52,558 nucleotides of DNA from Candidatus Dojkabacteria bacterium (GTDB lineage Bacteria > Patescibacteriota > Dojkabacteria > SC72): NCBI GenBank assembly GCA_034002865.1, contig JAVEZR010000004.1, positions 1-52,558 of the forward strand, given 5' to 3'. The position numbers and the translations under genes were made by a program. Below are positions 23,335 to 47,703 of the stretch, piece by piece. The stretch's first letter is position 1. Every line of letters starts with the position of its first letter. The notes beneath the pieces were generated by a model, which was given only the letters and a program-made list of their open reading frames with translations, did no database searches and was not told the origin of the DNA.

Positions 23335-23760
23335 TTACTCTACAGTTTCCTCTTCTACAACCTCTTGCTCTTCTCCTACTGTAGGAACTTCTATCTCATC
23401 TGTAAGATATACATCCTTAAGCAAACCAACCTTTAAAGCTCTCCTTCCAACCCTATCTCTAAGGTAGAACAGTTTAGATCTTTTAACAGTACCTCTTTTA
23501 ACAACCTCCATCTTCTCTAAAAGATTTGATTGTAAAGGTATTACTCTCTCTACACCTACTCCGTAAGATATCTTCCTTACAGTAATTGTTCTATTTGCTC
23601 CTGTAGCTTTCATACCGATAACTACACCCTCAAATATCTGTATCCTTTCCTTGTTCCCCTCTCTAATCTTCATATGTAATCTAACAGTATCTCCAACCCT
23701 TGCATCAGGTCTTTTCTTACTATCTGCCCCCTCTATTATCTTTGTAATCTTTGTATCCAT
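23335..23760 (-). CDS. rplS: 50S ribosomal protein L19
   Basis: From ATG 23760: MDTKITKIIEG...RPDARVGDTVRLHMKIREGNKERIQIFEGVVIGMKATGANRTITVRKISYGVGVERVIPLQSNLLEKMEVV is canonical L19, with an acidic roughly 25-aa C-terminal tail. The track's longer ORF (to 24069) is a spurious upstream extension overlapping gpmI. Confidence 0.9.
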   Translation of the reverse strand: MDTKITKIIEGADSKKRPDARVGDTVRLHMKIREGNKERIQIFEGVVIGMKATGANRTITVRKISYGVGVERVIPLQSNLLEKMEVVKRGTVKRSKLFYLRDRVGRRALKVGLLKDVYLTDEIEVPTVGEEQEVVEEETVE

Positions 23761-23860
23761 ATCATTTGTTGTAATATATAAAAAGCATAAATATAAATAT
23801 GCATCGGCTATTATAGAATAATTTCCGAAATTATGCCACAATGTATAATTAAAAACTGCC

Positions 23861-25396
23861 ATGAACATTAAACAAAAAGTATTACTAATAATATTGGACG
23901 GAGTAGGATCAGCACCTGATTCACCAGGAAATGCCGTAGTAAAGGCCAATCCACGTAACCTTTCAACCCTTTGGAGTACATCCCCACATACATATTTACT
24001 TGCATCCGGAGAGGCTGTAGGACTTCCTAAAGATGTAAAAGGTAACAGTGAGGTAGGACATACTAACATTGGAGCAGGTAGAGTAATATTTCAGACCTTA
24101 CCTAGAATAGATCAATCAATATCAAAGGGTCTGTATTTTAAGAATTCAATACTACAAGAATCTCTTAAGTATGCATCTAAACAGAAATCAAGAATACACC
24201 TTCTAATATTACTAAGTGATGGAAGTGTACACTCACATATTAATCACCTAAAAGCCACTATTAAATACTTTGCAGAGAGTAATTTTAACGGAGAACTTTT
24301 TGTACATGCATTCACTGACGGAAGAGACTCCCCACCCAATTCATCAAGAAAATATCTAGACGATTTACAAAAAACATTAAATCAGTACTCCATTGGTAAG
24401 ATAGCGACAGTATGCGGAAGGGCATGGGCAATGGATAGGAATGGTAATTGGGGTAGAACAAAGAAGGCGTATGATTTAATTACACAAAATATTGGGAATA
24501 AATGTGGTACATATCAGGAGTGTATAGAGAAATCATATGCAAGGAATATCACAGATGAGTTTGTAGAGCCTACCGTATTAGCTCAAGGTAGTGAAATTAG
24601 AAGTAAAGATGTAGTCATATTCCTTAACTTTAGACCAGATAGGGCACTACAGCTTACAAGAGCTCTTGTTGATAGTAACTTTACAGAATTCCAAAGAGCA
24701 AACATATACCCAATCTTTTTTGCAAGTATGGTGGAGTACAGGAAGAGCTTTCCACCTAAGGTACTCTTCCCAAAGCAATATATAGCTCTCCCTATTGGAA
24801 ATATAATAGCTTCACAAGGGTTAAGACAGTTACGAATATCTGAGTCAGAGAAGTTCCCTCATGTTACGTACTTCTTTAATGGTGGAGCCTCTATCAGATA
24901 TACCAATGAAGATCGTATAGAAATACCCTCCCCCTCTGTAGCAACATATGACTTAAAGCCTGAAATGAGTGCACTACAGATGACAAATGTTTTGCTTAGT
25001 AAGATTGAGTCTGATCTCTATGACTTCATAGTTGTAAATTTTGCTAATCCTGATATGGTAGGACACTCAGGAAATCTGGAAGCCACGGTAAAGGCTGTCT
25101 CTGTTGTAGATTACTGTGTAGGGGAATTAGTTAAAAATTTTACAGTAAGAGGAGGAGCAGTAGTAATTACAGCAGATCATGGAAATGCAGAAGAGGTAAT
25201 AAATCTTGATACTGGAGAGATGGATACAGAGCACTCTCTTAATCCAGTACCACTCATACTCTCTGGAATAAATATGGCACCGAGAAATCTTCAATATGGA
25301 GCTTTAAAGGATATCACACCTACAATACTTGATATAATGGGGTTACCAATACCTTCGGATATGACAGGGGTCTCTTTACTTAAGAGCTTACGTTAG
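23861..25396 (+). CDS. gpmI: 2,3-bisphosphoglycerate-independent phosphoglycerate mutase
   Basis: 511 aa. LLIILDGVGSAP...GNSEVGHTNIGAGR, FTDGRDSPP and ADHGNAE motifs. TATAAT at 23844-23849 lies 11 nt before the ATG. Confidence 0.93.
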   Translation: MNIKQKVLLIILDGVGSAPDSPGNAVVKANPRNLSTLWSTSPHTYLLASGEAVGLPKDVKGNSEVGHTNIGAGRVIFQTLPRIDQSISKGLYFKNSILQESLKYASKQKSRIHLLILLSDGSVHSHINHLKATIKYFAESNFNGELFVHAFTDGRDSPPNSSRKYLDDLQKTLNQYSIGKIATVCGRAWAMDRNGNWGRTKKAYDLITQNIGNKCGTYQECIEKSYARNITDEFVEPTVLAQGSEIRSKDVVIFLNFRPDRALQLTRALVDSNFTEFQRANIYPIFFASMVEYRKSFPPKVLFPKQYIALPIGNIIASQGLRQLRISESEKFPHVTYFFNGGASIRYTNEDRIEIPSPSVATYDLKPEMSALQMTNVLLSKIESDLYDFIVVNFANPDMVGHSGNLEATVKAVSVVDYCVGELVKNFTVRGGAVVITADHGNAEEVINLDTGEMDTEHSLNPVPLILSGINMAPRNLQYGALKDITPTILDIMGLPIPSDMTGVSLLKSLR

Positions 25397-30162: not shown

Positions 30163-31596
30163 TTGTTACTTGTGGAAAATTTAAGTATTGTAAAAATTAG
30201 AGAGAAGTTACTAAAGAAAGAGCTCTCAGCCCAAGAGCTAGTACAGTATTACCTTAAAAATATCAAAGAGAAAGACTCAAAACTTAATTCATATATCACG
30301 GTATGTGAACAGGAAGCACTCTTAAATGCTAAGCAGTTTGATAGCGAATTTGAAAGTATGAAAGAGAGAAAGCTAGGAGGTATACCTCTTGGTATTAAGG
30401 ATATATTCTCAACAGAAGGCATACTTACATCTGCTGCCTCTCATATATTAAACGGCTACAAACCTGTATATGAATCTACTGTTACAAGTAAACTACTAAA
30501 AGAGGGAGCTATAATATTAGGGAAGACAAACTTAGATCAGTTCTGTCATGGATCATCTACAACAACATCATACTACGGTACTACACGTAATCCACATGAC
30601 TTAGATAGGCTACCAGGGGGCTCTAGTGGTGGCTCTAGTAGTGCAGTGGCTGCAGATCTATGTGCAGGTGCCATCGGTACAGAAACTGCAGGATCAATTA
30701 GATTACCTGCATCATGGTGTGGAGTTGTAGGACTGAAACCAACATATGGAAGAGTATCAAGATATGGAGTCATTGCAATGGGCTCTTCACTAGATAGCCC
30801 TGGACCAATAGTTAAGTCTGTAGAAGATAGCGCTTTACTACTCTCTGTAATCGCAGGATATGACCCTAAAGATTTCACTACATACAGGGACACTACTACA
30901 GATTACTTAGCAAACTTAAATCCTTTAAATATTAAAGGTATGAAATTAGCCATACCTAAGGAGTATATGGAATTACAGCTTGAAGATGGAGTAAGAAGAA
31001 ACTTTGATAACAGTGTAGAGATATTAAAAAAACTAGGAGCAAAGATTGAGTATGTAAACATCCTAAATCCTAAATTCGGAATGGCAGTATATACAATTAC
31101 ATGTAGAAGTGAAGTGTCTTCCAACCTTTCAAGATTTGATGGTACAAGATTTGGATTAGAAGGGAGTGATAGCTCTACAGTTAAAACTTACTTTGAATCT
31201 ACAAGAGGGGAAGGATTAGGTGAAGAAACAAAAAGAAGGATAATGACAGGAACATACTCACTCTCTGCAGGATATGCAGATGAATACTTTAAGAGATCTG
31301 AACAGGTAAGACAGTTAATAAAGGAGGATTTGGATAAGGTATTAAAACAGTATGACTGTATAATATCCCCTACAACACCATCCATTGCACTAAAGGATAA
31401 GGATGCTGATAACCCACTCTTTGGCGAGATAGCGGATATATTAGCAGAGGGAAGCTCAGAGGCAGGATTACCTGCAATCTCAATTCCTAATGGAGTATCA
31501 GAGAGTATGCCTACAGGTATACAAATAATTGGGAAACATTTAGCAGAACAAACTATTCTAGATGCTGCAAAAGCTCTTGAAGAGAATCAATCTTAA
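30163..31596 (+). CDS. gatA: Glu/Asp-tRNA amidotransferase subunit A
   Basis: 477 aa. Amidase signature GIKDIFSTEG...GGSSGGSSSAVAADL...GTETAGSIRLPAS. Non-ATG start (TTG 30163 or GTG 30172). Confidence 0.94.
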   Translation: MLLVENLSIVKIREKLLKKELSAQELVQYYLKNIKEKDSKLNSYITVCEQEALLNAKQFDSEFESMKERKLGGIPLGIKDIFSTEGILTSAASHILNGYKPVYESTVTSKLLKEGAIILGKTNLDQFCHGSSTTTSYYGTTRNPHDLDRLPGGSSGGSSSAVAADLCAGAIGTETAGSIRLPASWCGVVGLKPTYGRVSRYGVIAMGSSLDSPGPIVKSVEDSALLLSVIAGYDPKDFTTYRDTTTDYLANLNPLNIKGMKLAIPKEYMELQLEDGVRRNFDNSVEILKKLGAKIEYVNILNPKFGMAVYTITCRSEVSSNLSRFDGTRFGLEGSDSSTVKTYFESTRGEGLGEETKRRIMTGTYSLSAGYADEYFKRSEQVRQLIKEDLDKVLKQYDCIISPTTPSIALKDKDADNPLFGEIADILAEGSSEAGLPAISIPNGVSESMPTGIQIIGKHLAEQTILDAAKALEENQS

Positions 31597-35597: not shown

Positions 35598-35671
35598 GCG
35601 AGAGTAGTTCAGTTGGCTAGAATGCCTCCTTCCCAAGGAGAAGGTCGCGGGTTCGAATCCCGTCTCTCGCT
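35598..35671 (+). tRNA. tRNA-Gly (anticodon CCC), no encoded CCA
   Basis: GCGAGAG/CTCTCGC acceptor, D arm GTTC-AGTTGGCTA-GAAT, anticodon stem CCTCC/GGAGA (one mismatch) with loop TTCCCAA, T arm GCGGG-TTCGAAT-CCCGT, discriminator U. Length 74 nt. Confidence 0.88.
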
Positions 35672-35692: not shown

Positions 35693-38600
35693 TTGGTTGT
35701 GATAAAAAGAATAGAACAATATAAAGTATTTCTTATACTTTTTTCTCTTTTACTACTTACTACAATTATCTCAACCTATAATCCATTCAAGATAAGTCTT
35801 TTGGCGGCAGACAATATTCCTGCATGTATATCTACATGTACAGATTATACTGGTAACTACTATGGTGATTGTGAAAGATTCTGTGATCCATACAGTTCCG
35901 GTTATTACGGTTATGAGAATAGCTGTGCATATCAAAGCTATCCTGAGGGAAATACTGAGCAGTGGTGTTCATCTGTAGAGATGGATGTAGAGATGTGTAT
36001 AGGAGGGTGTATTGCTGAAAATCCTGATGCAACAGACGTAGAATATAGTTGTCGAGACCTTTGTTCTGCCTATAATGATAAGTATGGCTGCGAAAATAAT
36101 TACGGAGCTTATTTACAGGGAGGTTATGATTTTACTCCTAGCACTTCTTTCTGTTCATATTTAGATTTCAGAGATGAGGTTGGCTCATGTTATACCGCCT
36201 GTACTACTGAGCTTGGAGCGGGATATGATATGGATTGCTCTACTTTTTGTAACCCTTATGATCACGGATATTACGGATATGAATGGCAAGTTGGAGGAAC
36301 TGGAGGATGTACAGAGGCAAGTCAGTATTATAACTATGACTATCCACAACCAGGATTGTGGTGTTCTTATTTAGAGAAAAATAGCCAAATGTGTACAGGA
36401 GCCTGTATAGCTCAGAATAGCTCTTATCAAGATCCTGAATTCCCTTGTAATGATATTTGTACTGCATATACCGTAACCTCTGAATGTGCTGCTGATGCTG
36501 GAAGCTACTTTGAATACTTTATCCCTACTACTGATTTCTGTTCATATTTAGAATATGGTGTAGAACATGAAGAGGATGGTATCTATTTAAACGGTACTAT
36601 CCGAGGTTACATGCAAATTGAAACCGGAGGTGTAAAAAACATAACAGGGTATGTTAGACATGCCAACATGCCTGATGATTTTACAATCCTAGGAAACAAC
36701 GATAACAACTATTCTAATGATATAGCTGGTGATTGTACTCTTGTAGCAGGTACAGAATCAGACAAATGGGAATTCTCCTGTCCTACAGATGATATAACTG
36801 GGGAAGGAATATACCAGTATACATTTACAACCTCCAACGATGCTGATTTATGGGAATCTTCAAAGATCTTAACAATAAACTATGGGATTGATGATTTAAC
36901 ATACCTATGGACTTTCGATGAAAGAAATGAAGATTGGGGTAACGAAGTAATAACTAATCTTGCTCCAACAGAGGGTGGTGCTACGCAAACAGACCCAGGT
37001 TTTCATGTAGGAGGTGCTTTAAATGGTTTAGATGAAAAGTATTTAACATACGAGGACCTAGGCGGAGATTTTAATTTTGCTGGTGGAGATGTTCATTTTA
37101 AAATTGAAGCGATGGTAAAGGGAAATGCATATGATAATTATGATCGTATGCTAATTTCAAAGAGAAGTAACGATGAAGAATCTAATACGTGGACAGTCGG
37201 TACAAGTGGCGACAGAGGGGTAAGATGTGCTGTTGAAATTAATGGTGAGCAACAAACTACTCAAACTGAATGGGAGACAGGAGGGCAGCTTACAAACGGA
37301 GAGACATATAAAATTGGATGTGAATGGAATGCTTACACAAGAGAACTTACAGCATATATTGATGACGTGGCAATAATAACAAATACCATTGGAGGGACAG
37401 ACTTTATTCCCCCTTCTACAAGTAATTTAACAATTAATGGAATACCTGGTGTTGGATACGATACGAATGCTTATATAGATAATATAATGATATATTCTTA
37501 CCCTGCAGAAGTTCCTGGAGACGAAACAAATCCCCCAGGGATATTTATTCCTCAAACAGAGAAATTCAAAACTGTTGATTCTACTATTACTACACCTATT
37601 CTTGGAAGAATCTATGACGAATCAACAATAGACTCTGTTGAGATTAAAAGAGTTGACAGTGAGACATGGAATAGCTGTACTGTAGATAGTGAACCATCTC
37701 CTGTTACTCTACCTACTCCCTTAGCAAAATGGAGCTTTGAAGAGGAAAGTGGTACCGGTGCATACTTACTTGATAGTAGTGGAAATGGATACCATGCTAC
37801 TCCTAGTGGAACCACAGTAGGAGAAGGAATTGTTGGAAATGGAAGGTCTATTGGTGCCTGGAATTATATAGAAGTAGATTCAAGTTTGAATAACGATATC
37901 CCCTCTGGCTCAGAAGCTAGGACAGTAAGTGCATGGGTTAAATTTGAAACTAATGAAGGGTGTCCTACCGGTTGGAATCCTGTTTTTAGCTATGGTAGTG
38001 AGGATGAGGTAGGAGAGAATGTTGCTTGGGGTGTAGTAATTGATTGTGATCGTTCTCTTGGTGTTAATGAGGGAACATCTCGTGAATTTGTAGAGGCAAA
38101 AGTCCCTTCTTGGGAATGGACTTTTGTAGCAGTTTCAATGGATAGTAATGGTAATAAAACACATTATATTAATGGAGAAAATGTAGGAACAATTACTACA
38201 GTACCAAACACCATTCCTGATCATAACCCTAAAATAGGTATCCTTTATCATGGCCATCACTCATTCCCAGGAATAATTGATGAGGTCTCACTCTTTGATA
38301 GAGCACTATCAGAAGAGGAAATAATCAATATATTTAGTTCTACAAAAGATAATTATGAATTCTCATGTTCAACAGGACCAATGCTTGATTTGTCAACAAA
38401 TGCATACCAGATAAGGGCGACTGACCAATTTAACAATGTCACAGCAGTAGAAAACTATGAATATGTAGAAAGGGAAGTGGATGCTTTTGGAGGATTAGAG
38501 TTGAAAACTCTTTTGAGATTTGAAAGTGGTAATACACTTCTTGACTCCATAGGAACTCTAATTAATGGATATGCATATGAAGGGGGAACAAACCCTATTA

Positions 38601-41600
38601 CATCAATTCCTAGAACTACTGGAATATATGGTGATGCTGGAGATTTCCAAGATATTAGAAGATTGTTCTTCCCAGACAATAGTCAAATATATGATTTCAA
38701 TGATTATGAAGATAAATTACCACACTTTAGGGTTGAAGCTATCGTAAAAAGATTGTATGAAGATACACATAGATCTATTCTTGTTAAAACACTCTCAGAG
38801 GAAGGAGAGCCCCTATGGAAAATGGGAACTTCAGATACCAGTAACCTACTCTGTTCCGTAGTTACTCTTGGAGGTACCGTAACTGTAATAAGTGATGAGA
38901 CTCTCCCTATAGATGAATGGAGAGCTGTAGCATGTGATTGGAATGCTTTAACAGGAGAGCTTACGGCTTCAATAGATGGGATTGATGTTAAAACTGAAAC
39001 AACAAATATAGATATATCATTAAGACAACTTACTACTTCCACAGGACCTCTTGTTATCAGCGGTATGGGACAAGATAGCTATTATGATCCTTTTAATGGA
39101 TTTATTGATAATGTAAAAATATATAATGAGTATCTTACTATCCCTAAAAAGCCTATTGAATTAAATAGCTCTTCAGCATTAGCTAACTCAGATACTTACC
39201 TCTTACAAGGAAGTGCGAATACCAATACAAGTGATAACATAGTTCAAGTACAGTATAGAGAGTATGCACAGGGACAGAATGAGAACGTGAATTGGAATGG
39301 GTGTACGTGCGATGATGGTACTTGTGATAACCCAACAGAAGATTTCTCATGCTCAATTACAAATATTCCAGAGTCCTCTACTACTACATATGAAATAAGA
39401 TATGTATATGGAGATCCACTCTCATATCTTGCAAGTAACTTATATGGTATCTCTGATATTAGAAGAGACAGCAATAATTCATTAGAAGCATGGTGGAGTT
39501 TCGATAAAGCTACAGAGTTAATAGATTATACTGGGAATGGATTTAATGGAACTTTAATTGGAGTTTCCCCTCTTTATTCTAATCTAACAACTGGTTCTCT
39601 TACCAATATATTCGATGGAAATACATATTTTGAAATAGCTGATACTGAGAGGAAGTTAAACTTCAATGGTTTCTCAGATGAATTCAAAATAGAGCTAGAT
39701 ATCAAACCTGATGCAGGATTAACTACTAACGAAGATTATCATTTTATATACAAAACAAAATCTTCATGGGAGGAAGGTGAACAACCATATGTCTGGGGAA
39801 TAAGAATGTATGTTACACCCAATGGAGATTACGTTGCCAGCGCTAGGGTTGATGATAACGGAGAAAGATCTGTTGGATTTGAAGATAATCCTAATTCTTA
39901 TTTAAATCCAGGACAGTGGAATCATATTGTATTCACATATAGCAATGTAGATGAAGTAATAACCCTTAAGGTTAATGACAATGATACTATCATAAGTGAA
40001 ATTTATCAGAGTATGTCGTTAGATGAGTCTAGCGCACCAGTTACAATAGGATCGCGCGCTACAGATAATAATAAGTTCGTAGGGGAGATTGATGATATAA
40101 AGATTTATAATGAAACATATGTTCCTCCTTATACTCCCTTTGAGTTTAGTACTAGTGCAGCAATAGTAAGTACAAATACATATACCTTGCAGGGTACGGC
40201 TGATACAATAGATAAAGAAATCTCAACTATACAATACAGGTTATTTAACAGTTCACAGGCACAAGGAGATAACTGGAGCAGCTGTACATGCGATGATGGT
40301 ACATGTAATTCTGTAATTGAAGATTTCTCCTGCAATATAGCTGATATCCCTGCTTTTACTTCAACATATGAACTTAGATTGGGATATGGAGAACCTCTTG
40401 AATATATCACAAGTGAGACATATGGCAGATTTGATATTACAAAAGATACTTCAGACAGTTTAGTAACATGGTGGGGATTTGATAGCGATACTAATATTAC
40501 TGATTATGGAGTAAATGAACTTGATGGAACAGTAGTTGGCCATGTGGAGACTTCAATCTCCTCAGAGACAGGTTCTCGAACGAATGTTTTTCATGGTGAT
40601 ACATATTTTGAAATAGCTGATACTGAGAGGAAGTTAAACTTCAATGACGTGGATAGTGAATTCACAGTTGAACTAGATATTAAGCCAGAGATAGGGTTTA
40701 ATACCAATCAAGACTATTACATAATGACTAAAAATGCCCCTGACTCATCTTTTGTATGGGGCATAAAAATTTATGTTACATTAGATGGAGATTATGATAT
40801 TAGGGGTATCATTAATACAGAGAATCAGATAAAAGAAATAGGACATAATGATCTAAGCGCGAATTCTAACACTTACCTAACTCCAGGAGATTGGAACCAT
40901 GTAGTATTCTCCTTTGCAAATCTTGATTCCACAGCCACAATTAAGGTCAATGATAATCCACCTTCTGTATATAGCAACAGTATCTACTTCTTGATGCCTA
41001 CATCAACCTCTCCTATCACAATAGGTGGGAACCCTGCAATAGGAAATAAATTTGAAGGAGAAATAGGAGATATAAAGATTTATAGTACTACCGATGCAAG
41101 AGCACCTCAGATAACCTTTAAAGAATTAGACAATAAAGAGAGAATTACAAATGACCCAAATCAAGAGTTTGAAATTACTGTCACAGATCAAACAGGAGTA
41201 GAATCTTTTGGATACTTCTTCTTCGATATGTCCGGCTCTTGGGATATTCCAGAACCAGGTTATATACCAATAGCTGATAGAGAGTGGACATATGTCGATA
41301 ATCCAACCGAGGGTAATTGGGGAGATAAAGAGGTTGTAATAAAAATTAATGCGGTAGATCTCTCAGATAAACTTTGGTACCTATATACAAGAGCCACTGA
41401 TAGCAATGGCTTTGAATCCTTACTTCCTGATCATTGGTGGTATACCACTTACGCACATCATACTCCTTCAGCAATGCCATACTATCAGTTCTTTGTAGAG
41501 GCACGTGATACTACCCCTCCTCAGATATTTGCTCACTCTATAATCCCGAGCCAAACCGTAGATACTAACCCTGGAGTAAGAGGATATATAAAAGACAACC

Positions 41601-44600
41601 CAAAGGACACAATTAGCGATATTGCCTCTATCGAGTATAAGCTCGAAATAGGTACTCTTGAAGGGGAAGATTGGACTCCAGGAGAAATTGGAACCTGGAA
41701 ACCTATTACACCATTAGGCATAGAGAATATCTTTGATCAGCCAACAGAAGAATTCTATCTAAGACTTGAAGGCCTAACCCCAGGGGATTACAAATTAGAA
41801 ATAAGAGCTGAAGATGCCTCTGGAAATAGCACAGAAGACAATGATACAAATCACACTGGATACTTCACAATATATGAAATAAATCCTAAACCAGATACTA
41901 CAGTATTAATAAAAGAGGAGGACTTTACCTCTCATGCCTACCATGATCAACTCTTTTCTGATGGTGTTTGGGGTAATGGAATCTTAAGACTAAGACAATC
42001 GGTATCATTCCAACAGGAACAAGCTATGTTTACTAACAATAATGACTTTGGATACACATATGGAGAATTCCGTGGGGAAATATTTGATTCTGTAGATGGA
42101 AATTTCTGGATTGTGAATAATGATCAAACCTTTTCTTACTACAATATTGAAAATGATACATATACAAAGTATCCAAAATTAAAAAAGGGATGGTATTTGG
42201 CAGATGTAAATGAATTTGAGTTTGAAGATAGAAGATATCTTGTAATAGACTATGTTTACGAGTCAACTATAATCTATGACATTAATAACACACCTGAGGA
42301 TACAACTGATGACACATATGTTGATTATAAAGATAAAGAAGGATTTGGTAATAACAAGGATTTCGAATTTATAGATATAGACAGAAGAAACAATACCTTA
42401 TCAATATTTGGAAGGGCTGAGCCTGCAGTAGAGAATTTTGTAATCTCAATAGATACAAAAGGAACAATAATGGATATATCAGATGACACGTATACCACAT
42501 GGGGAACAGCAGATAATCTCTTCTATGACGAAGACCTTGAAGAATATCATACAGATCATGATATAGTAGGCTTACTATTAGACCAAGAATTAGATAGTTT
42601 TGTAATGTCTACTTACACTCATGGCTCTTGGATATGTAGTGATGGTGGAGATCCTGAAAACAAAACAAATGATGCATGTAAGTACTACCCAACATGGGGT
42701 AAATTCTCAATAATAAAAGATAACAATGGGTATTACTATCTTGGTGGAAATGGAAGATTGGTAAGAATTAATTCAAACAATACTTCCAATTTAATGGATG
42801 ACACATTAACCGATATTGTCTCCATTGGAGATCCAAGACTTATAGACGATACAGTATCGGATATGGTTATTATCCCAGGCAAATATCCTGTTGGAGATGA
42901 GCTTTGGTTCTTAACAACAAATGGATATCTTAGAGGGGTAGAGTACAACTTCACATATGACGATAAACTAGATGATACTACCTATGTATATAAAATTCCT
43001 ACACACCAAAATAGAGGAGGATCAGGAACCAACTTTAGTCTTAGGGGAGACGATACCTTTTATGTAGCAACTCAAGGGGAGGGAATACAGAAAATAACTC
43101 TTACTAGATCCTTTGAGAGTTTAAACACAATAGAGATGCTCCCTATTCCACCAGATGGTATCTTAGCAATAAACTACATTGACCTAGAGGAAGTTCTTGG
43201 AGCTGTAACAAATGGTAGTCAATATACACTTAATGATCTTGTTACATATGAAGTCTCTAATGACTCAGGAGTAACATGGTTCCCTATTACACAAGGTCAA
43301 AGAGTTAACTTCCCAACACCAGACTATAAACTGAAACTTAAAATAATACTTAGAAGTGGTTCCTCTCCAATCATAGATGCACTTAAACTCTCTTACGTTG
43401 CATATCCTGAGAAAAAAGATGACCAATGTGATATCAAGATTAATGATAAAGCACCACAAATAACTAGTATTAAGCCTAATACAAATAAATCATTCACAGT
43501 AAACTTCGCTACATTAGCTGACCCAACAGTACAAAGCTATACACTAGAATACGGCCTATCTAACAGTAACTTTACTACCGGTTCTCAAACAGTATTAAAA
43601 GATACTAATACATTTACTGTAACAGGTATTCAAGAAGATACAGAGTACTTCTTTAGAGTAAAAGCTGTATCTGATTGTACAAGCAGTCTCTGGTCAAACG
43701 TAATGAGTGCTACAAACACAGGTGAAGCTACACAACCTCCTGTTAAACCTCACAGGCCTCCTAAAGCTACAGACCCAACTACAGAAGAAAATCTCTGTGG
43801 TAACGGAGTACTAGATGAAGGAGAGGAGTGTGACTATGCTAATACAGAGACATATATGTGTGAAGATGGTAGTACAGGTATATGTACAGTTGAATGTACA
43901 TTAGATGTAAATAGCTGTAAGGAAGAGGATTCTGATATTCCAATAATTGATAGAATTAAGGAAAATATTAAAGAAGTAGAAAAAGAGAGGGATGGGGAAG
44001 CCATATCTGCAACACAGGTAGCAAACTGGGCTGTAAAATTAATATCACTCTCTCTACTCACCCTCTCTGTACCACTAATACCTTACTACTTCATGAGGAT
44101 TCTACTTGGTATCCCTTACATAATTGGTATGAGAAAAAGAGATAAAGAGTATGGATATGTATATGACTCAATTACAAAGGAACCAATAAAACAGGCCATT
44201 GTAAGAATATATAGTGGAGATAAGCTAGTACATACGGATGTAACAGGTACATATGGAGAGTTTGGTGGCAATATTGAGCCAGGGAAATACACTCTCTCTG
44301 TTCAGAAACCACAGTACTCATTCCCATCAACAATGGTAGTAGGTAGTACTGATATGCATATTAGTAATGTATATAACGGAACACTAGAAGTTAAGGAGAA
44401 TGCAGAGATAATTACTGCTGTTCCAATAGATAGTAATAAAGCAAAAGTATTTGATATATTCAAAACTATTGTAATAAATAGGACCGCTATCTTACTCCAA
44501 TTTATTAAACTACTACTCTTTGTAGGATTACTTGCATACTCTATATATGCATATAAGACAAATAGTAATACTCTAAACCTCATTGTACTAATTGAATACG

Positions 44601-44905
44601 CTATCGTCTTAGCAGTCTTACTACTCTCTTCTTTAAGTAGAGATATTAAATATGGAAAGATTACGAATGCATATGATGAGCCTGTTGTGGGAGTCAATGT
44701 AGGTCTCTTTGAAAGAGAGTTTGATAAGTTACAAACAGAAAGAGTCACAAATGAGAAAGGCCAATACAGATTTATCATTAAACCAGGAACATATGAGATT
44801 AGATCATTAACACCTGGATATACATTACAGGATAACAACGTTATCACTGTAAATGATAAGCCTTCTATAATAAACAGGGATCTCAAAATTACAAACAGTA
44901 GGTAA
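35693..44905 (+). CDS. Giant (3070-aa) multi-lectin surface protein: Cys-rich modules, 5 LamG/ConA-like domains, Ig/FN3 modules, propeller-like repeats, Cys repeat, 3-TM anchor with two CarboxypepD_reg-like domains
   Basis: Uninterrupted 9213-nt ORF with a non-ATG start (TTG 35693 or GTG 35699) and a signal/anchor (VFLILFSLLLLTTIISTY). LamG-like domains lie at about 36901-37505, 37721-38340, 38513-39130, 39486-40115 and 40464-41093; the clearest contains AKWSFEEESGTGAYLLDSSGNGYHATPSG...FPGIIDEVSLFDRALSEEEI. FN3 at 43443-43722, CGNGVLDEGEECD at 43795, TM/beta-sandwich anchor at 44020-44902. Confidence 0.9.
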   Translation: MVVIKRIEQYKVFLILFSLLLLTTIISTYNPFKISLLAADNIPACISTCTDYTGNYYGDCERFCDPYSSGYYGYENSCAYQSYPEGNTEQWCSSVEMDVEMCIGGCIAENPDATDVEYSCRDLCSAYNDKYGCENNYGAYLQGGYDFTPSTSFCSYLDFRDEVGSCYTACTTELGAGYDMDCSTFCNPYDHGYYGYEWQVGGTGGCTEASQYYNYDYPQPGLWCSYLEKNSQMCTGACIAQNSSYQDPEFPCNDICTAYTVTSECAADAGSYFEYFIPTTDFCSYLEYGVEHEEDGIYLNGTIRGYMQIETGGVKNITGYVRHANMPDDFTILGNNDNNYSNDIAGDCTLVAGTESDKWEFSCPTDDITGEGIYQYTFTTSNDADLWESSKILTINYGIDDLTYLWTFDERNEDWGNEVITNLAPTEGGATQTDPGFHVGGALNGLDEKYLTYEDLGGDFNFAGGDVHFKIEAMVKGNAYDNYDRMLISKRSNDEESNTWTVGTSGDRGVRCAVEINGEQQTTQTEWETGGQLTNGETYKIGCEWNAYTRELTAYIDDVAIITNTIGGTDFIPPSTSNLTINGIPGVGYDTNAYIDNIMIYSYPAEVPGDETNPPGIFIPQTEKFKTVDSTITTPILGRIYDESTIDSVEIKRVDSETWNSCTVDSEPSPVTLPTPLAKWSFEEESGTGAYLLDSSGNGYHATPSGTTVGEGIVGNGRSIGAWNYIEVDSSLNNDIPSGSEARTVSAWVKFETNEGCPTGWNPVFSYGSEDEVGENVAWGVVIDCDRSLGVNEGTSREFVEAKVPSWEWTFVAVSMDSNGNKTHYINGENVGTITTVPNTIPDHNPKIGILYHGHHSFPGIIDEVSLFDRALSEEEIINIFSSTKDNYEFSCSTGPMLDLSTNAYQIRATDQFNNVTAVENYEYVEREVDAFGGLELKTLLRFESGNTLLDSIGTLINGYAYEGGTNPITSIPRTTGIYGDAGDFQDIRRLFFPDNSQIYDFNDYEDKLPHFRVEAIVKRLYEDTHRSILVKTLSEEGEPLWKMGTSDTSNLLCSVVTLGGTVTVISDETLPIDEWRAVACDWNALTGELTASIDGIDVKTETTNIDISLRQLTTSTGPLVISGMGQDSYYDPFNGFIDNVKIYNEYLTIPKKPIELNSSSALANSDTYLLQGSANTNTSDNIVQVQYREYAQGQNENVNWNGCTCDDGTCDNPTEDFSCSITNIPESSTTTYEIRYVYGDPLSYLASNLYGISDIRRDSNNSLEAWWSFDKATELIDYTGNGFNGTLIGVSPLYSNLTTGSLTNIFDGNTYFEIADTERKLNFNGFSDEFKIELDIKPDAGLTTNEDYHFIYKTKSSWEEGEQPYVWGIRMYVTPNGDYVASARVDDNGERSVGFEDNPNSYLNPGQWNHIVFTYSNVDEVITLKVNDNDTIISEIYQSMSLDESSAPVTIGSRATDNNKFVGEIDDIKIYNETYVPPYTPFEFSTSAAIVSTNTYTLQGTADTIDKEISTIQYRLFNSSQAQGDNWSSCTCDDGTCNSVIEDFSCNIADIPAFTSTYELRLGYGEPLEYITSETYGRFDITKDTSDSLVTWWGFDSDTNITDYGVNELDGTVVGHVETSISSETGSRTNVFHGDTYFEIADTERKLNFNDVDSEFTVELDIKPEIGFNTNQDYYIMTKNAPDSSFVWGIKIYVTLDGDYDIRGIINTENQIKEIGHNDLSANSNTYLTPGDWNHVVFSFANLDSTATIKVNDNPPSVYSNSIYFLMPTSTSPITIGGNPAIGNKFEGEIGDIKIYSTTDARAPQITFKELDNKERITNDPNQEFEITVTDQTGVESFGYFFFDMSGSWDIPEPGYIPIADREWTYVDNPTEGNWGDKEVVIKINAVDLSDKLWYLYTRATDSNGFESLLPDHWWYTTYAHHTPSAMPYYQFFVEARDTTPPQIFAHSIIPSQTVDTNPGVRGYIKDNPKDTISDIASIEYKLEIGTLEGEDWTPGEIGTWKPITPLGIENIFDQPTEEFYLRLEGLTPGDYKLEIRAEDASGNSTEDNDTNHTGYFTIYEINPKPDTTVLIKEEDFTSHAYHDQLFSDGVWGNGILRLRQSVSFQQEQAMFTNNNDFGYTYGEFRGEIFDSVDGNFWIVNNDQTFSYYNIENDTYTKYPKLKKGWYLADVNEFEFEDRRYLVIDYVYESTIIYDINNTPEDTTDDTYVDYKDKEGFGNNKDFEFIDIDRRNNTLSIFGRAEPAVENFVISIDTKGTIMDISDDTYTTWGTADNLFYDEDLEEYHTDHDIVGLLLDQELDSFVMSTYTHGSWICSDGGDPENKTNDACKYYPTWGKFSIIKDNNGYYYLGGNGRLVRINSNNTSNLMDDTLTDIVSIGDPRLIDDTVSDMVIIPGKYPVGDELWFLTTNGYLRGVEYNFTYDDKLDDTTYVYKIPTHQNRGGSGTNFSLRGDDTFYVATQGEGIQKITLTRSFESLNTIEMLPIPPDGILAINYIDLEEVLGAVTNGSQYTLNDLVTYEVSNDSGVTWFPITQGQRVNFPTPDYKLKLKIILRSGSSPIIDALKLSYVAYPEKKDDQCDIKINDKAPQITSIKPNTNKSFTVNFATLADPTVQSYTLEYGLSNSNFTTGSQTVLKDTNTFTVTGIQEDTEYFFRVKAVSDCTSSLWSNVMSATNTGEATQPPVKPHRPPKATDPTTEENLCGNGVLDEGEECDYANTETYMCEDGSTGICTVECTLDVNSCKEEDSDIPIIDRIKENIKEVEKERDGEAISATQVANWAVKLISLSLLTLSVPLIPYYFMRILLGIPYIIGMRKRDKEYGYVYDSITKEPIKQAIVRIYSGDKLVHTDVTGTYGEFGGNIEPGKYTLSVQKPQYSFPSTMVVGSTDMHISNVYNGTLEVKENAEIITAVPIDSNKAKVFDIFKTIVINRTAILLQFIKLLLFVGLLAYSIYAYKTNSNTLNLIVLIEYAIVLAVLLLSSLSRDIKYGKITNAYDEPVVGVNVGLFEREFDKLQTERVTNEKGQYRFIIKPGTYEIRSLTPGYTLQDNNVITVNDKPSIINRDLKITNSR
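35816..36572 (+). repeat. Two diverged Cys-rich modules (about 121 and 131 aa) at the N-terminus of the giant protein
   Basis: Module A1 (35816-36178) and A2 (36179-36572) share the pattern C--(A/T)C(T)....G--Y---C--FC-PY--GYYGYE......WCSYLE/SSVE..MC-G-CIA-N.....(Y/F)-C-D-C-AY......FCSYL(D/E). They are similar at protein level but diverged at DNA level. Confidence 0.8.
39621..39668 (+). repeat. 48-nt exact repeat, copy 1 (atacatattttgaaatagctgatactgagaggaagttaaacttcaatg)
   Basis: Base-by-base identical to 40599-40646. It encodes (N/D)TYFEIADTERKLNFN. Flanking cassette DNA is clearly diverged. Confidence 0.95.
40599..40646 (+). repeat. 48-nt exact repeat, copy 2
   Basis: Identical to 39621-39668. 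The offset is 978 nt (in frame, 326 codons). Confidence 0.95.
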
Positions 44906-44953: not shown

Positions 44954-45026
44954 GCTGATGTAGCTCAGCTGGAAGAGCATTCCCTTCGTAAGGGACAGGT
45001 CGATGGTTCGATCCCATCCATCAGCT
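44954..45026 (+). tRNA. tRNA-Thr (anticodon CGU), no encoded CCA
   Basis: GCTGATG/CATCAGC acceptor, D arm GCTC-AGCTGGAA-GAGC, anticodon loop TTCGTAA, T arm GATGG-TTCGATC-CCATC, discriminator U. Length 73 nt. Confidence 0.88.
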
Positions 45027-45036
45027 TTGCAAAAAC

Positions 45037-46125
45037 ATGACTATACCAAAATATACAATAACAAATCTAATACTTAGTTACATAATAAAATATGAACTCA
45101 GTATTGATAAAATAAGAAATACTCCTATGCCCTCTACAGCACTTGACACCATTAGGGAGAAATATGCTACAGAGGAAATCGACAAATTAGGAGAATTAAT
45201 CTCATACCCAATAGGATACAGTAAGGCACTAACAGTTCAACGTGGCCAGGTATTACCATCATACAAAAATAAGCTAAGAATTTTTACCAACTTTAAGAAC
45301 GCACAAGACTTCTTAGATACATACAATATTAAAAGTGCCCTTAAACCATCAATAGAGCTCTCTACGCACCTAAATAAAATCGTTATGAAAAATATTGTAG
45401 AGGAGTGGGATCTTTCAAGAATAAAGACATTCTCAGAGAAGCCCTTCGACCTTTACGATACATGGTACAACCTTAGAGATTACTACCCTAACATAGATAT
45501 GAAGACACACTTCAATGAACTCTTCGGTTGGATTGCTAACTCCTCTACTGGCACTCATAAGTTAATACAGTTTGCAATCTTACTCTATGAATTTATAGAC
45601 AAAGCACCCTTCTATGCAGGCAATCAGATAACCTCTATACTAACAATCAAAGCATTAGCAAAAATATACAACCTTAACCCTCACAATCTAATCCCCTACT
45701 CCAAAGCGATGTTTTTAATCAGTGAAGATATTAATTCAGCTTTTAAAATCTCTAAAGGTAAAAGAGACCTAACCATCTTCATAGAAGCAGTACTGTACAC
45801 CCTCTCTCTAACTACCATAGATATATCTAAAGAGTTCTTCCAAGCATATGAAGATAAGATGATGATAAATAAAAAGATTGGTAAAGACTTAAACCCAAGA
45901 CAAGCAAAGATAGTAGAATATCTAAATACAAACGCAAGAGTAACTAGACAGCAGTATACCAAGATGATGGGAGTCTCCTTTATGACATCATACAGAGACC
46001 TACAAGAGCTACTAGAGAAGAAATACATCTTACAGAAGGGTCAAGGTCGTGGTACCTACTACATTATTCCAGATGCAAGTGATAACATATCTAGTGATAA
46101 TACAGGGATAGAGATCTTTAATTAA
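45037..46125 (+). CDS. Fic-family protein with degenerate active-site motif + C-terminal winged HTH
   Basis: 362 aa. HKLIQFAILLYEFIDKAPFYAGNQITSIL aligns to the Fic core hP.i.aa..H..F..IHPF.DGNGR..R, with His, Asp, Gly and both Arg replaced (45601-45639). The C-terminal LNPRQAKIVEYLNTNARVTRQQYTKMMGVSFMTSYRDLQELLEKKYI is a wHTH. Confidence 0.7.
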   Translation: MTIPKYTITNLILSYIIKYELSIDKIRNTPMPSTALDTIREKYATEEIDKLGELISYPIGYSKALTVQRGQVLPSYKNKLRIFTNFKNAQDFLDTYNIKSALKPSIELSTHLNKIVMKNIVEEWDLSRIKTFSEKPFDLYDTWYNLRDYYPNIDMKTHFNELFGWIANSSTGTHKLIQFAILLYEFIDKAPFYAGNQITSILTIKALAKIYNLNPHNLIPYSKAMFLISEDINSAFKISKGKRDLTIFIEAVLYTLSLTTIDISKEFFQAYEDKMMINKKIGKDLNPRQAKIVEYLNTNARVTRQQYTKMMGVSFMTSYRDLQELLEKKYILQKGQGRGTYYIIPDASDNISSDNTGIEIFN

Positions 46126-46185: not shown

Positions 46186-47703
46186 GTGGACACATCAAAA
46201 TACGATGTAATAATAGGGTTAGAAATACACATACAAACTAAAACTAACAGTAAAATGTTTTGTAGCTGTCCTACTAACTACTTTAACAAACAACCAAATA
46301 CCCATGTATGCCCTACATGCTTAGGATTACCAGGAGCACTACCAGTACCAAATAAAAGAGCAATTGAGCTATGCATACTAATGGGCTTAGCTACAAAGTG
46401 CGATATTGATAATGAAATCCATTTTGATAGGAAACATTACTTCTACCCTGATTTACCAAAAGGGTATCAAATTAGTCAGTACAAAAATCCAATCTGTTCT
46501 GATGGATACATCGATATAGATGATGAAGATGGAAAGAAATTTAGAGTTGAAATTGAAAGAATACACCAAGAAGAAGATGTAGCTAAATCAACACACCATA
46601 CAGAAAGCTCTACCGGATCAGAATATACATTAATAGATTACAACAAATCAGGAGTACCTTTAATTGAAATAGTTACAAAACCAAATATAAGGAGTGCATA
46701 TCAAGCAAAAGAGTACGCTACTAAAATTAGACAGTTAGCTAGATATCTAAATATCTCAGACGCTGATATGGAGAAAGGCCAGATGAGATGTGAGCCAAAT
46801 ATCTCTGTACAAGAGAAGGGTAAATGGGAGTACAAAGATGGAAAAATCTCACCAAAACAGGGATATACTCTTAATGCGAAAGTAGAGATAAAAAATATAG
46901 GATCAATATCTGCAGTAGAGAAATCAGTAACATATGAAGTAGAAAGATTAATTAAAGAGATAGAAGCAGGAAAAGAAATAGTACAACAAACAAGAGGTTG
47001 GGATGCAAATAAAGGAATTACAGTATTTCAAAGATCCAAAGAAACTGCAGATGACTACCGATATATGCCAGACCCTGATATCCCAGTAATAGAGATTAAA
47101 GATACAGATATAGAAAGAATTGAGAAAGAAATAATAGAGCTACCTGATGAAAAGAAAAGAAGATATATGCAAGATTACAACCTCTCTTCATATGATGCTC
47201 AAGTACTAACCTCTGATAGAGAGATATCCCTTTACTACGAGTCTACTCTTGCTCTTGTAAGTAAAAATATAGAGATTCTTAAAGCTGCAAAAGCTACAGC
47301 TAACTGGTTAACAGGAGCAGTATTTTCAATAGCAAATGATAATGGTTTACAAATAACAGATGAGAATATTCCACAAGATGATATTGCAACCCTAATTATA
47401 GAGTTTGAAGAGAAAGTATTAACAAGAAACAAGGCAGAAGAGCTACTGAGAGAATCAATTGAGGGTAAGAAAGACTTAGGAGATTTAATATCAAATGCTA
47501 AAAAGCATGCAAAGGATATCACAGGTAATATAGATGAGATTGTACAAGAAGTAATAGATTCTAATCCTAAAGCTGTAGATGATTACAAAGCAGGTAAAGA
47601 GACTTCCATAGGGTACCTAGTAGGTCAGGTTATGCAAAAAACTAAAGGCAGTGCAGACCCTAATAGTACAAGATCAATTTTAATAGAGAAAATAAATGGA
47701 TAA
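46186..47703 (+). CDS. gatB: Glu/Asp-tRNA amidotransferase subunit B
   Basis: 505 aa with a GTG start. IIGLEIHIQTKTNSKMFC, CPTCLGLPGALPV, HFDRKHYFYPDLPKGYQISQ, and a C-terminal GatB_Yqey domain (IGYLVGQVMQKTKGSADP). Confidence 0.94.
   Translation: MDTSKYDVIIGLEIHIQTKTNSKMFCSCPTNYFNKQPNTHVCPTCLGLPGALPVPNKRAIELCILMGLATKCDIDNEIHFDRKHYFYPDLPKGYQISQYKNPICSDGYIDIDDEDGKKFRVEIERIHQEEDVAKSTHHTESSTGSEYTLIDYNKSGVPLIEIVTKPNIRSAYQAKEYATKIRQLARYLNISDADMEKGQMRCEPNISVQEKGKWEYKDGKISPKQGYTLNAKVEIKNIGSISAVEKSVTYEVERLIKEIEAGKEIVQQTRGWDANKGITVFQRSKETADDYRYMPDPDIPVIEIKDTDIERIEKEIIELPDEKKRRYMQDYNLSSYDAQVLTSDREISLYYESTLALVSKNIEILKAAKATANWLTGAVFSIANDNGLQITDENIPQDDIATLIIEFEEKVLTRNKAEELLRESIEGKKDLGDLISNAKKHAKDITGNIDEIVQEVIDSNPKAVDDYKAGKETSIGYLVGQVMQKTKGSADPNSTRSILIEKING

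Follow-up and report, generated by a model that had tools for sequence, protein, structure and literature searches.

The window analyzed here is a stretch of 52,558 nucleotides from an uncultured bacterium with a small genome, Candidatus Dojkabacteria (WS6, CPR), and on its forward (+) strand, at positions 35693 to 44905, lies a giant open reading frame (ORF) of 3070 codons free of internal stops. The initial annotation of this DNA described a single open frame of 9213 nt in an AT-rich genome, and we found the frame present and uninterrupted in DNA of 35% G+C, where a 9.2-kb open frame is far longer than expected by chance. The count of 3070 codons begins at a TTG codon (35693); judged from the sequence, the true start is probably the GTG at 35699, which gives a protein of 3068 amino acids (aa). 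The database copy of the protein is also 3068 aa long, and the N termini of orthologues read MIKRIEQ or MIIKKIVQ. At 9.2 kb, this one gene takes up about 1% of a genome of such size, and the largest contigs of relatives are 715 to 869 kb long.

As annotated initially, the giant ORF sits between two tRNA genes, both found with ARAGORN on the same strand: tRNA-Gly(ccc) at 35598 to 35671, 21 nt 5' of the ORF, and tRNA-Thr(cgt) at 44954 to 45026, 48 nt 3' of it. The position of tRNA-Gly is kept at orthologous loci. In the L001 orthologue both tRNAs flank the gene, and in L002, where the contig stops within the gene, the upstream tRNA-Gly is present. Because the same tRNAs border the orthologues, these flanks are not a sign of a genomic island, and we ruled out an island at tRNA genes, with the tRNAs and neighbors kept in L001 and tRNA-Gly and neighbors kept in L002. 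The G+C content of the giant gene equals that of its surroundings. No attachment-related gene adjoins it, the neighbors being housekeeping genes (RNase HII, YtxH, GatB, LepB, and ParAB), and no paralogues were found within the window.

The protein begins with a hydrophobic segment at aa 7 to 32 (35711 to 35788), identified by hydropathy and corresponding to the signal or anchor read there initially; it is a signal peptide or a signal anchor, with a possible cleavage site at LLAA|DN. It is followed by two Cys-rich modules, at aa 40 to 160 (35810 to 36172) and aa 161 to 290 (36173 to 36562), which had also been noted and which prove to be a duplicated pair, 37 to 38% identical with an E value of 1e-19. 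Each duplicate (aa 40 to 159 and aa 161 to 288) contains 12 Cys and four CX3C motifs, arranged in copy 1 as two twin-CX3C pairs. The module had no match in Pfam, NCBIfam, or the PDB, and a sequence search of the PDB with the whole giant protein also gave no match. In an AlphaFold2 model the module is predicted, with low confidence, to be helical.

Five pairs of modules make up the next part of the protein, which we call the head. The initial annotation proposed five concanavalin-A/LamG-type domains, each preceded by an Ig-like module with a recurring W--C...(E/D)FSC motif. Laminin_G_3 (PF13385) matched the entire protein with an E value of 2e-52, and when the five segments were scanned one by one, all exceeded the gathering score of 27.6 bits: domain 1 at aa 471 to 604 (37103 to 37504; 28.4 bits), domain 2 at aa 739 to 877 (37907 to 38323; 67.8 bits), domain 3 at aa 1017 to 1149 (38741 to 39139; 42.6 bits), domain 4 at aa 1309 to 1474 (39617 to 40114; 44.8 bits), and domain 5 at aa 1635 to 1799 (40595 to 41089; 40.8 bits). 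Domain 3 is a paralogue of domain 1 (32% identity). All five copies of the motif were located ahead of the LamG domains, at aa 359, 657, 888, 1201, and 1528. They lie in Ig-like modules 1 (36563 to 36967; KWEFSC), 2 (37535 to 37792; TWNSC), 3 (38345 to 38587; NYEFSC), 4 (39200 to 39562; NWNGCTCDDGTC...EDFSC), and 5 (40175 to 40537; NWSSCTCDDGTC...EDFSC). A beta-rich module carrying the motif therefore precedes each LamG domain, as in module 1, where beta strands are predicted with low confidence, but its assignment as Ig-like finds no Pfam match in the head. Units 4 and 5 are approximately 47% identical, and their paralogy accounts for the only internal DNA repeats in the gene. A LamG/ConA-like fold alone does not imply glycan or cell binding, so the term lectin, used on the basis of sequence, describes a putative activity of these domains.

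Downstream of the head we found a series of domains that we call the base. It starts with a pair of beta-sandwich modules, IgA and IgB (41090 to 41899), of approximately 135 aa each, both of which begin D(A/T)x(A/P)PQI; IgB gave weak matches to Y_Y_Y, Big_13, and DUF4625. Three Ig/FN3-like modules had been counted at 41100 to 41890, but sequence reading together with segmentation of homologues resolves aa 1800 to 2069 into two. The next region, aa 2070 to 2445 (41900 to 43027), is a putative seven-bladed beta-propeller with likeness to Reg_prop and PorZ. Blade motifs of the type DDxGTPxNxxDD recur in it, and a profile of the region matches PorZ with an E value of 0.006, with the motif DDxGTPxxxxDD aligning to that protein. 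Reg_prop (PF07494) has no Pfam match in the giant protein and matches 2 of 22 relatives at E values of at least 2.6e-4. AlphaFold2 models built from three-sequence alignments, which we read for secondary-structure class, had pLDDT values of 42 for the propeller plus the following sandwich and 38 for the Cys-rich cap plus Ig-like module 1. Nearly all of the top 50 Foldseek matches to the pLDDT-42 model were propellers or propeller-containing chains, at TM-scores of 0.19 to 0.35. Thus, the propeller-like region of about 370 aa proposed initially has several pointers in its favor, all of them weak, and we regard a Reg_prop-like propeller in the base as probable.

The base continues with a conserved beta-rich domain (43028 to 43432) that has no Pfam match and contains one Asp-box, SNDSGVTW (aa 2522 to 2529). 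A clear FN3 domain, as annotated, lies at aa 2587 to 2672 (43451 to 43708), where fn3 (PF00041) scores 43.6 bits against a cut-off of 25 (E value, 3.5e-11), and the annotated Pro-rich linker is present at 43733 to 43792 (QPPVKPHRPPKATDP). Next is a six-Cys acidic knot at 43793 to 43927 (CGNGVLDEGEECD...), for which a Myxococcus-type Cys repeat had been proposed. The knot is present and resembles TIGR02232 and DUF4215, but its CGNG...EECD repeat falls below the curated cut-off of TIGR02232 (14.1 versus 20.8 bits; E value, 0.031; model positions 2 to 33 of 38), and a Pfam scan gave no match at an E value of 5 or lower. Because DUF4215 passes its cut-off (28.7 versus 27 bits) in a distant anchor-family protein, L014, the likeness is probably real and the copy here divergent.

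For the C terminus, a three-helix transmembrane (TM) anchor had been described. The hydrophobic helices are there, but the anchor also contains two CarboxypepD_reg domains, between and after them. A first membrane segment (44021 to 44131) consists of a hydrophobic span of approximately 37 aa, divided by a central Pro turn into helix A and helix B, and is followed by RKRDK. It leads into CarboxypepD_reg-like beta-sandwich 1 (44153 to 44437), with the family motif G.VYDS.TKEPI..AIVRIY, then TM2 and TM3 (44483 to 44635), identified by hydropathy and separated by a 7-aa loop, and finally the C-terminal CarboxypepD_reg-like beta-sandwich 2 (44654 to 44860). With the entire protein as the query, CarboxypepD_reg (PF13620) scored 57 to 62 bits over two stretches against a cut-off of 32.3; taken alone, copy 2 scored 38.2 bits and copy 1 fell just under the cut-off at 30.7 bits. 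An anchor profile matched NOMO2, SdrD, and carboxypeptidase D/M in the PDB. Searches of the giant protein found no GGxGxD motif or RTX family match and no LP.[TSA]G motif for sortase anchoring. In 118 anchors of the family, the count of K plus R per 15 aa was 3.7, 3.2, and 3.5 on the sides facing the beta-sandwiches, compared with 0.7 before helix A and 0.6 in the TM2-TM3 loop, and the motifs of the soluble domains are invariant throughout the family. By the positive-inside rule, these counts would place both CarboxypepD_reg domains in the cytoplasm.

The anchor and base belong to a large family in Dojkabacteria. Word-indexed searches, whether the query was the whole protein, the anchor, or an anchor profile of 22 sequences, recovered nothing beyond near-identical orthologues or fragments, and a scan of GTDB species representatives had a sole match, the MAG of P0003. 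The family was seen only with a full HMMER scan, which gave 2960 matches at E values of 1e-3 or lower and 164 at 1e-30 or lower. About 45 protein clusters share a 1,200-aa base in the order IgA-IgB-propeller-sandwich-(FN3)-(Cys knot)-anchor, with differing heads, and more than 100 further clusters, of 282 to 3662 aa, have only the 300-aa C-terminal anchor in common. All eight of the named clusters are Dojkabacteria/WS6. An N-terminal hydrophobic segment is present in 80 of the 98 family members that start with M, internal TM segments are absent from 108 of 118 members, and the anchor is always C-terminal, with a median of 16 aa beyond it. The heads of relatives contain FG-GAP, InlB B-repeat, F5/8 type C, and Big domains, and the NCBI name for relatives is "LamG-like jellyroll fold domain-containing protein." In 29 metagenome loci there was one anchor gene per locus, with no tandem arrays and no conserved partner beside it except in a distant subfamily, whose conserved neighbors, an AI-2E transporter and three ORFs of unknown function, are uninformative. 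The initial annotation was aware of no described family with this exact domain order; there is indeed no curated Pfam or NCBIfam model that spans the whole base or the whole anchor, but the base is shared by the clusters above and, as discussed below, proteins of this kind have already been proposed.

We also compared the gene between strains. It is found in three independent assemblies with identical neighbors, and the survey of orthologues and synteny that had been suggested with the annotation returned intact, collinear orthologues with the same neighbors in two independent assemblies. Compared with a close strain, both ends of the gene are 98 to 100% identical, while the LamG region is 30 to 70% identical and differs in unit content. 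At the nucleotide level, the flanks are 91 to 100% identical to those of L002, the first 540 nt and the last approximately 1,500 nt of the gene are 98 to 100% identical, and the interior is 70 to 84% identical, with no detectable match over 36560 to 38380. The dS values are 0.02 to 0.2 at the gene ends versus 0.7 to 1.8 inside. The unit array here is 1-2-3-4-5; that of P0002 is 1-2-3-(4/5 hybrid) and that of P0003 is 1'-1''-2'-3-(4/5 hybrid). The near-identical ends and the divergent LamG region with altered unit content therefore identify the head as the recombining, variable part of the protein. A 48-nt exact repeat (39621 to 39668 and 40599 to 40646) marks the starts of LamG4 and LamG5, and the orthologues have a single Ig4+LamG5 hybrid unit joined at this repeat, a candidate site, on sequence grounds, of gene conversion or unequal crossover.

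Purifying selection acts on the whole gene, with dN/dS against the orthologue of 0.11 to 0.28 in every domain; by tier, the values are higher in the head (0.2 to 0.46) than in the base and anchor (0.10 to 0.17). Positive selection was not found, with dN/dS below 0.5 everywhere. Since dN/dS is below 1 throughout, the data establish mosaicism and not positive selection, and this mode of head evolution resembles, by analogy, that often seen in adhesins and receptor-binding proteins. Diversification by a DGR was rejected, as Pfam scans of 30 ORFs in the window, among them every ORF of at least 200 aa, contained no reverse transcriptase. A phage origin for the head or base was likewise rejected after tblastn against 50,697 phage records returned nothing.

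With an N-terminal signal, Cys-rich and beta-sandwich ectodomains, a C-terminal TM cluster, and no internal TM segment, the giant protein agrees with its initial description as a membrane-rooted, multi-LamG protein. We consider it reasonably likely that it is a Sec-exported fibre, held in the membrane at its C terminus, that most probably serves multivalent attachment to a cell or polymer surface; a role as an episymbiont adhesin would be one form of this. In this proposal, the protein would be exported by Sec and its C terminus lodged in the cytoplasmic membrane of the Dojkabacteria cell. The lineage-wide anchor of approximately 300 aa (hydrophobic span, CarboxypepD_reg, TM, TM, CarboxypepD_reg) would form a first tier. 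The base would form a second, a membrane-proximal stalk of Cys knot, FN3, Asp-box sandwich, probable propeller, and two Ig-like modules. The third tier, the head, would present five Ig-like plus LamG units outward, under a disulfide-rich helical cap, to bind an external ligand. Estimated roughly from the number of domains, such surface fibres would measure about 70 to 90 nm. Recombination between strains would remake the number and sequence of head units while the base and anchor stay constant, and its breakpoints would be expected at 36.2 to 36.6 kb, at 43.0 to 43.3 kb, and at the 48-nt repeat.

Several other explanations have to be weighed against this one. The internal repeat units might in principle confuse an assembler, but nucleotide identity between the units is only about 69% and the longest exact repeat is that of 48 nt; together with the collinear, intact orthologues in two independent assemblies and the low dN/dS of every domain, this makes a chimeric assembly or a pseudogene in decay extremely unlikely, and the giant ORF is real and intact. 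Instead of binding a host cell, the LamG units and the Reg_prop-like propeller might capture environmental polysaccharide or detrital polymers and keep them at the cell surface for degradation or uptake; environmental polysaccharide was an alternative that the initial annotation already offered. Laminin_G_3 domains are often found alongside glycan-active enzymes, and the nearest bacterial relatives of the propeller handle glycans (the HTCS sensors BT4663 and BT3049, and PorZ). A catalytic domain is absent from the protein, the adjoining genes include neither a glycoside hydrolase nor a sugar transporter, the propeller assignment is weak, and a head replaced from strain to strain is easier to reconcile with a biological target that varies than with a polymer of constant chemistry; we regard such substrate capture as unlikely. 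We give still less credence, considering it quite improbable, to a structural coat, S-layer-like or glycocalyx-like, that spaces or protects the cell and whose head varies through phage or predator avoidance. One anchor serving more than 100 clusters whose ectodomains differ greatly is the pattern that a general surface-display device should produce, and phage-receptor and antigenic surface proteins are typically mosaic as well, but the heads of the family (LamG, FG-GAP, F5/8C, and InlB-repeat) are binding rather than lattice-forming modules, there is one copy per locus, and no self-assembly domain was seen.

The charge asymmetry of the anchor bears on a further alternative, a transmembrane receptor in which ectodomain binding is relayed through the three-helix anchor to cytoplasmic CarboxypepD_reg domains in an integrin-like, outside-in manner. 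Consistent with such a receptor are the invariant soluble-domain motifs and the strength of constraint on the anchor, which exceeds that on any other part of the gene (dN/dS, 0.11). However, the solved homologues of these domains are, every one, extracytoplasmic or lumenal, a hairpin in the first hydrophobic span could place both domains outside, which would make this an ordinary anchor of four helices, and a signaling domain or conserved partner gene was looked for and not found, and we judge a receptor very unlikely. More broadly, we entertain, as a speculative and on balance doubtful idea, that the C-terminal 300 aa are an undescribed, Dojkabacteria-wide surface-display module whose transthyretin-like domains are cytoplasmic and which couples hundreds of ectodomains to an intracellular partner. 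If so, the coupled ectodomains, this giant LamG fibre included, would be linked for anchoring, sorting, or outside-in signaling, and monoderm-like CPR cells would have a novel means of mounting their surface proteins and perhaps of sensing them. CarboxypepD_reg domains that face the cytoplasm would be an unusual arrangement; otherwise, this is one more giant surface protein of the expected type.

CPR bacteria account for a substantial part of bacterial diversity, and attachment to other cells is the presumed way of life of most of them, yet to our knowledge their contact molecules are not known outside Saccharibacteria. Under the attachment reading, this locus provides a specific candidate for Dojkabacteria with a clear division of labor, in which a variable, recombining LamG head could set specificity. 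The conserved base and lineage-wide anchor could also act as sequence handles for listing every surface-displayed protein encoded in any given Dojkabacteria genome.

Among known systems, the only bacterial relatives that we found for the propeller plus sandwich are BT4663 and BT3049, which combine Reg_prop propellers with Y_Y_Y, and PorZ (5m11), and the likeness is weak (E value, 0.006; TM-score, 0.24 to 0.35; pLDDT-42 model). The giant protein differs from them in having one propeller, not two, in the placement of its Y_Y_Y-like module before rather than after the propeller, and in the lack of a kinase, response regulator, or T9SS C-terminal domain. In modular giant adhesins, whether of the RTX/T1SS type (LapA, MpIBP, and SiiE) or LPXTG-anchored MSCRAMMs (SdrD), a stalk of beta-sandwich repeats presents ligand-binding modules. 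The giant protein follows the same logic of a long beta-sandwich stalk, and its CarboxypepD_reg domains are related to the B domains of SdrD, but it has an N-terminal export signal and a C-terminal membrane module of three or four helices in place of RTX or LPXTG features. The name SPEARE stands for a combination of serine protease, adhesion, and restriction-endonuclease domains. In Nanohaloarchaeota, SPEARE proteins lie on the surface of an ultrasmall symbiont, are of very large size, and are believed to bring about contact with the host (PMC9563170); they are archaeal, and a domain search found none of their enzymatic domains in the giant protein.

The closest comparison is with Patescibacteria. 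LamG/concanavalin proteins are named among CPR/DPANN attachment features (PMC11310336), and giant membrane proteins with FN3, ConA, and integrin domains have been proposed as patescibacterial host-attachment factors (PMC8080830, PMC13059738), their adhesin role being, like the one proposed here, inferred. Those of Vampirococcus lugosii (PMC8080830) and Strigamonas methylophilicida (PMC13059738) also come from CPR bacteria with reduced genomes, exceed 1,500 aa, carry signal or TM segments, and contain FN3, ConA/LamG, integrin-like, and Ig-like modules that were read as recognition or attachment proteins. The protein described here has the same general features, at 3070 aa with a signal, a C-terminal TM cluster, and LamG and FN3 domains in a Dojkabacteria genome. 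The comparison is one of descriptions and not of sequences, and both organisms are Absconditicoccaceae, in a different class. A giant LamG/FN3 surface protein is thus of a kind already proposed for CPR host attachment, and what sets the Dojkabacteria protein apart from those descriptions is its base and its TM-CarboxypepD_reg anchor.

We found that the 9.2-kb frame at 35693-44905 on the forward strand is open over all 3070 codons, with no internal stop; at the ~35% G+C of the window, chance does not yield long open frames. It lies 21 nt downstream of tRNA-Gly(ccc) and 48 nt upstream of tRNA-Thr(cgt), so both the single frame and the flanking tRNA genes reported in the initial annotation stand. 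Because the database copy of the protein has 3068 amino acids (aa) and orthologues begin with MIKRIEQ or MIIKKIVQ, the true start is probably GTG 35699; aa positions here are counted from TTG 35693. Two collinear orthologues, each from an independent assembly (P0002, ENA ERZ27247823; P0003, NCBI metagenome-assembled genome GCA_041656215.1, "Candidatus Dojkabacteria bacterium"), are accompanied by common neighbors, with RNase HII, a 90-aa open reading frame (ORF), YtxH, and tRNA-Gly upstream and tRNA-Thr and a 362-aa helix-turn-helix (HTH) protein downstream. The downstream side of orthologous locus L002 is outside view, as its contig stops within the giant gene. Against P0002, dN/dS is 0.11 to 0.28 in every domain (Nei-Gojobori). 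Collinearity in independent assemblies and these ratios together indicate that the gene is functional and rule out an assembly chimera or a pseudogene, so the survey of orthologues and synteny that had been proposed speaks against an artifact. Purifying selection on the 362-aa neighbor (45037-46125, forward strand), whose sole match is a C-terminal DeoR-like HTH, is very strong (dN/dS of 0.03 against orthologous locus L001).

The window is ordinary chromosome, encoding DnaE, UvrB, UvrC, MutL, GatA, GatB, iPGM, Lgt, LepB, and ParAB. Its eight tRNA genes are single and scattered over 52 kb amid housekeeping genes, and GatA (30163-31596) and GatB (46186-47703) are 15 kb apart rather than together in one operon. 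About 200 nt at the 5' end of the iPGM gene (23861-25396, forward strand) are shared with a 244-aa ORF on the reverse strand (23335-24069); probably one start is miscalled or the 244-aa ORF is spurious. An 806-aa ORF (1554-3974, forward strand) probably specifies another surface protein; five Ig_Rha78A_N domains (E = 1.8e-58) accompany a divergent InlB B-repeat there, but the Dojkabacteria anchor module is lacking. A 628-aa protein with a transglutaminase core (19415-21301, forward strand) and a 716-aa ORF (4313-6463, reverse strand) whose sole match is weak and FN3-like (Pur_ac_phosph_N) may be envelope related.

The giant protein begins with a hydrophobic segment (aa 7 to 32), followed by the two Cys-rich modules noted earlier, which are duplicates (aa 40 to 159 and 161 to 288; 37 to 38% identity, E = 1e-19) with 12 Cys and two twin-CX3C pairs per copy. 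This module had no matches in Pfam, NCBIfam, or PDB, and is tentatively modeled as helical. The head comprises five units, in each of which a beta-rich module with the W..C/(E/D)FSC motif precedes a Laminin_G_3 domain; scanned singly, all five LamG domains exceeded the Pfam gathering score, as the initial reading of this array would predict. LamG1 and LamG3 are paralogues, and units 4 and 5 share ~47% identity across 330 aa. GC skew is strongly positive (+0.13 to +0.17) at 36001-40000 within the gene and negative over much of the upstream window, a pattern probably due to Gly/Asp/Glu-rich composition and not to replication.

Below the head, where three further Ig/FN3-like modules had been counted, aa 1800 to 2069 reads instead as two modules of ~135 aa, the second with weak Y_Y_Y, Big_13, and DUF4625 matches. 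The next region (aa 2070 to 2445) is all-beta with blade-like repeats and is probably a Reg_prop-like propeller. The AlphaFold2 model is poor (pLDDT of 42), and nearly all of its top 50 Foldseek matches, including the Bacteroides HTCS sensors BT3049 and BT4663, are beta-propeller or propeller-containing chains at TM-scores of just 0.19 to 0.35. Among 22 relatives, Reg_prop matched in 2 and Y_Y_Y in 6, while a 12-sequence profile matched only PorZ (5m11) in PDB, on a blade motif (E = 0.006). Next, aa 2446 to 2580 form a beta-rich domain of strong conservation whose only Asp-box is SNDSGVTW, and beyond it lie the expected FN3 (aa 2587 to 2672), the expected Pro-rich linker, and an acidic knot of six Cys. 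Previously called a Myxococcus-type repeat, this knot does resemble TIGR02232 but scores below the cut-off of that model.

A full HMMER scan of 1.84 billion representative proteins with aa 1871 to 3070 gave 2960 matches at E ≤ 1e-3 and 164 at E ≤ 1e-30, and mapping segments of the giant protein onto the best 150 revealed two nested families. In ~45 clusters (1.2 to 3.4 kaa) the whole base, IgA-IgB-propeller-sandwich-(FN3)-(Cys knot)-anchor, is retained under differing heads, with a varying number of LamG units and, in some, FG-GAP, InlB B-repeat, F5/8 type C, or Big domains. More than 100 clusters (282 to 3662 aa) have only the 300-aa anchor in common, always C-terminal (median of 16 residues beyond it); these proteins usually begin with a hydrophobic segment and lack internal transmembrane (TM) helices. 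All eight named clusters are Candidatus Dojkabacteria or candidate division WS6. No Pfam or NCBIfam model covers the base or anchor as a unit, in keeping with the earlier view that the family is undescribed, but the architecture is not unique to this protein. A distant subfamily at metagenome loci L014-L025 (e.g., L014, 4032-11191; 950 to 1270 aa, anchor 25 to 30% identical) has a conserved upstream AI-2E family transporter and then three ORFs without Pfam matches; in the L014 protein, a DUF4215 Cys repeat also exceeds its threshold and ~130 aa extend beyond the anchor.

The anchor, for which we found no published description in Patescibacteria, is the most interesting lead, ahead of the LamG array. 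It opens with a ~37-aa hydrophobic span that has a Pro turn at its center. Two CarboxypepD_reg domains follow, separated by a pair of TM helices with a 7-aa joint; the initial annotation gave a 3-TM anchor and left both of these domains unplaced. Conserved motifs are lG.rkk....G.VYdS.tKePi..AivRiy, y.FPS, siP.Dp, and kRvTd..G.YrFiv..G.Y. Across 118 anchors, the count of Lys plus Arg per 15 residues is 3.7 just past the first span, 3.2 ahead of TM2, and 3.5 beyond TM3, versus 0.7 ahead of the first span and 0.6 in the loop that joins TM2 to TM3, which by the positive-inside rule would place both domains in the cytoplasm. The first span could also form a helical hairpin, leaving both domains outside, and their solved homologues (NOMO2, SdrD B domains, carboxypeptidase D/M, T6 pilin, and a TonB-linked receptor) are all extracytoplasmic or lumenal. 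On insertion energetics, we favor the cytoplasmic placement with moderate confidence.

Compared with close strain L002, the flanks of the gene are 91 to 100% identical in nucleotide sequence and its first 540 nt and the last ~1,500 nt of shared sequence 98 to 100% identical, whereas the interior is 70 to 84% identical, 36560-38380 is undetected by blastn, and the LamG1-2 region retains ~30 to 37% protein identity. dS is 0.02 to 0.2 at the ends and 0.7 to 1.8 in the interior. Because the interior differs in history from the ends, these values indicate its exchange by recombination (allelic replacement). Unit content also varies, from 1-2-3-4-5 in the window to 1-2-3-(Ig4+LamG5 hybrid) in P0002 and 1'-1''-2'-3-(Ig4+LamG5 hybrid) in P0003. 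The point at which the hybrid is joined falls on a 48-nt exact repeat at the starts of LamG4 and LamG5 (39621-39668 and 40599-40646) amid ~69% identical surroundings, so gene conversion or unequal crossover is likely there. By tier, dN/dS reaches its maximum in the head (up to 0.46) and its minimum in the anchor (0.11), and is nowhere above 1.

The best-supported reading is a surface fiber, rooted at its C terminus, in which a constant anchor and stalk would present an exchangeable, multivalent LamG head for binding an external target; surface location, ligand, and target are all inferred. The architecture, a base that stays constant while binding heads are swapped, the mosaic nature of the head, and the expense of 9.2 kb in a genome of <1 Mb all fit an attachment or recognition role. 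Its rivals are that the protein captures substrate, forms a structural or protective coat, or acts as a transmembrane receptor. The initial annotation's interpretation is thus plausible, but its "lectin" and "episymbiont" labels overreach the evidence, the latter since Dojkabacteria are not known to have a particular host or lifestyle; passages found by keyword in a 2026 review of the phylum name neither (PMC13293708).

Domain and motif searches rejected an RTX adhesin, as did a motif search an LPXTG protein, Pfam scans of 30 window ORFs, with all those of at least 200 aa among them, a diversity-generating retroelement (DGR) target, and domain searches a SPEARE protein. The Dojkabacteria-wide anchor, conserved base, and twin-CX3C cap had no description in the curated libraries or literature searched. 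The general kind of protein is already known: Vampirococcus and Strigamonas encode proposed host-attachment factors that are very large membrane proteins carrying FN3, ConA, integrin, and PKD domains (PMC8080830, PMC13059738), and LamG/concanavalin proteins are routinely included among the attachment features of CPR and DPANN organisms (PMC11310336, PMC9563170).
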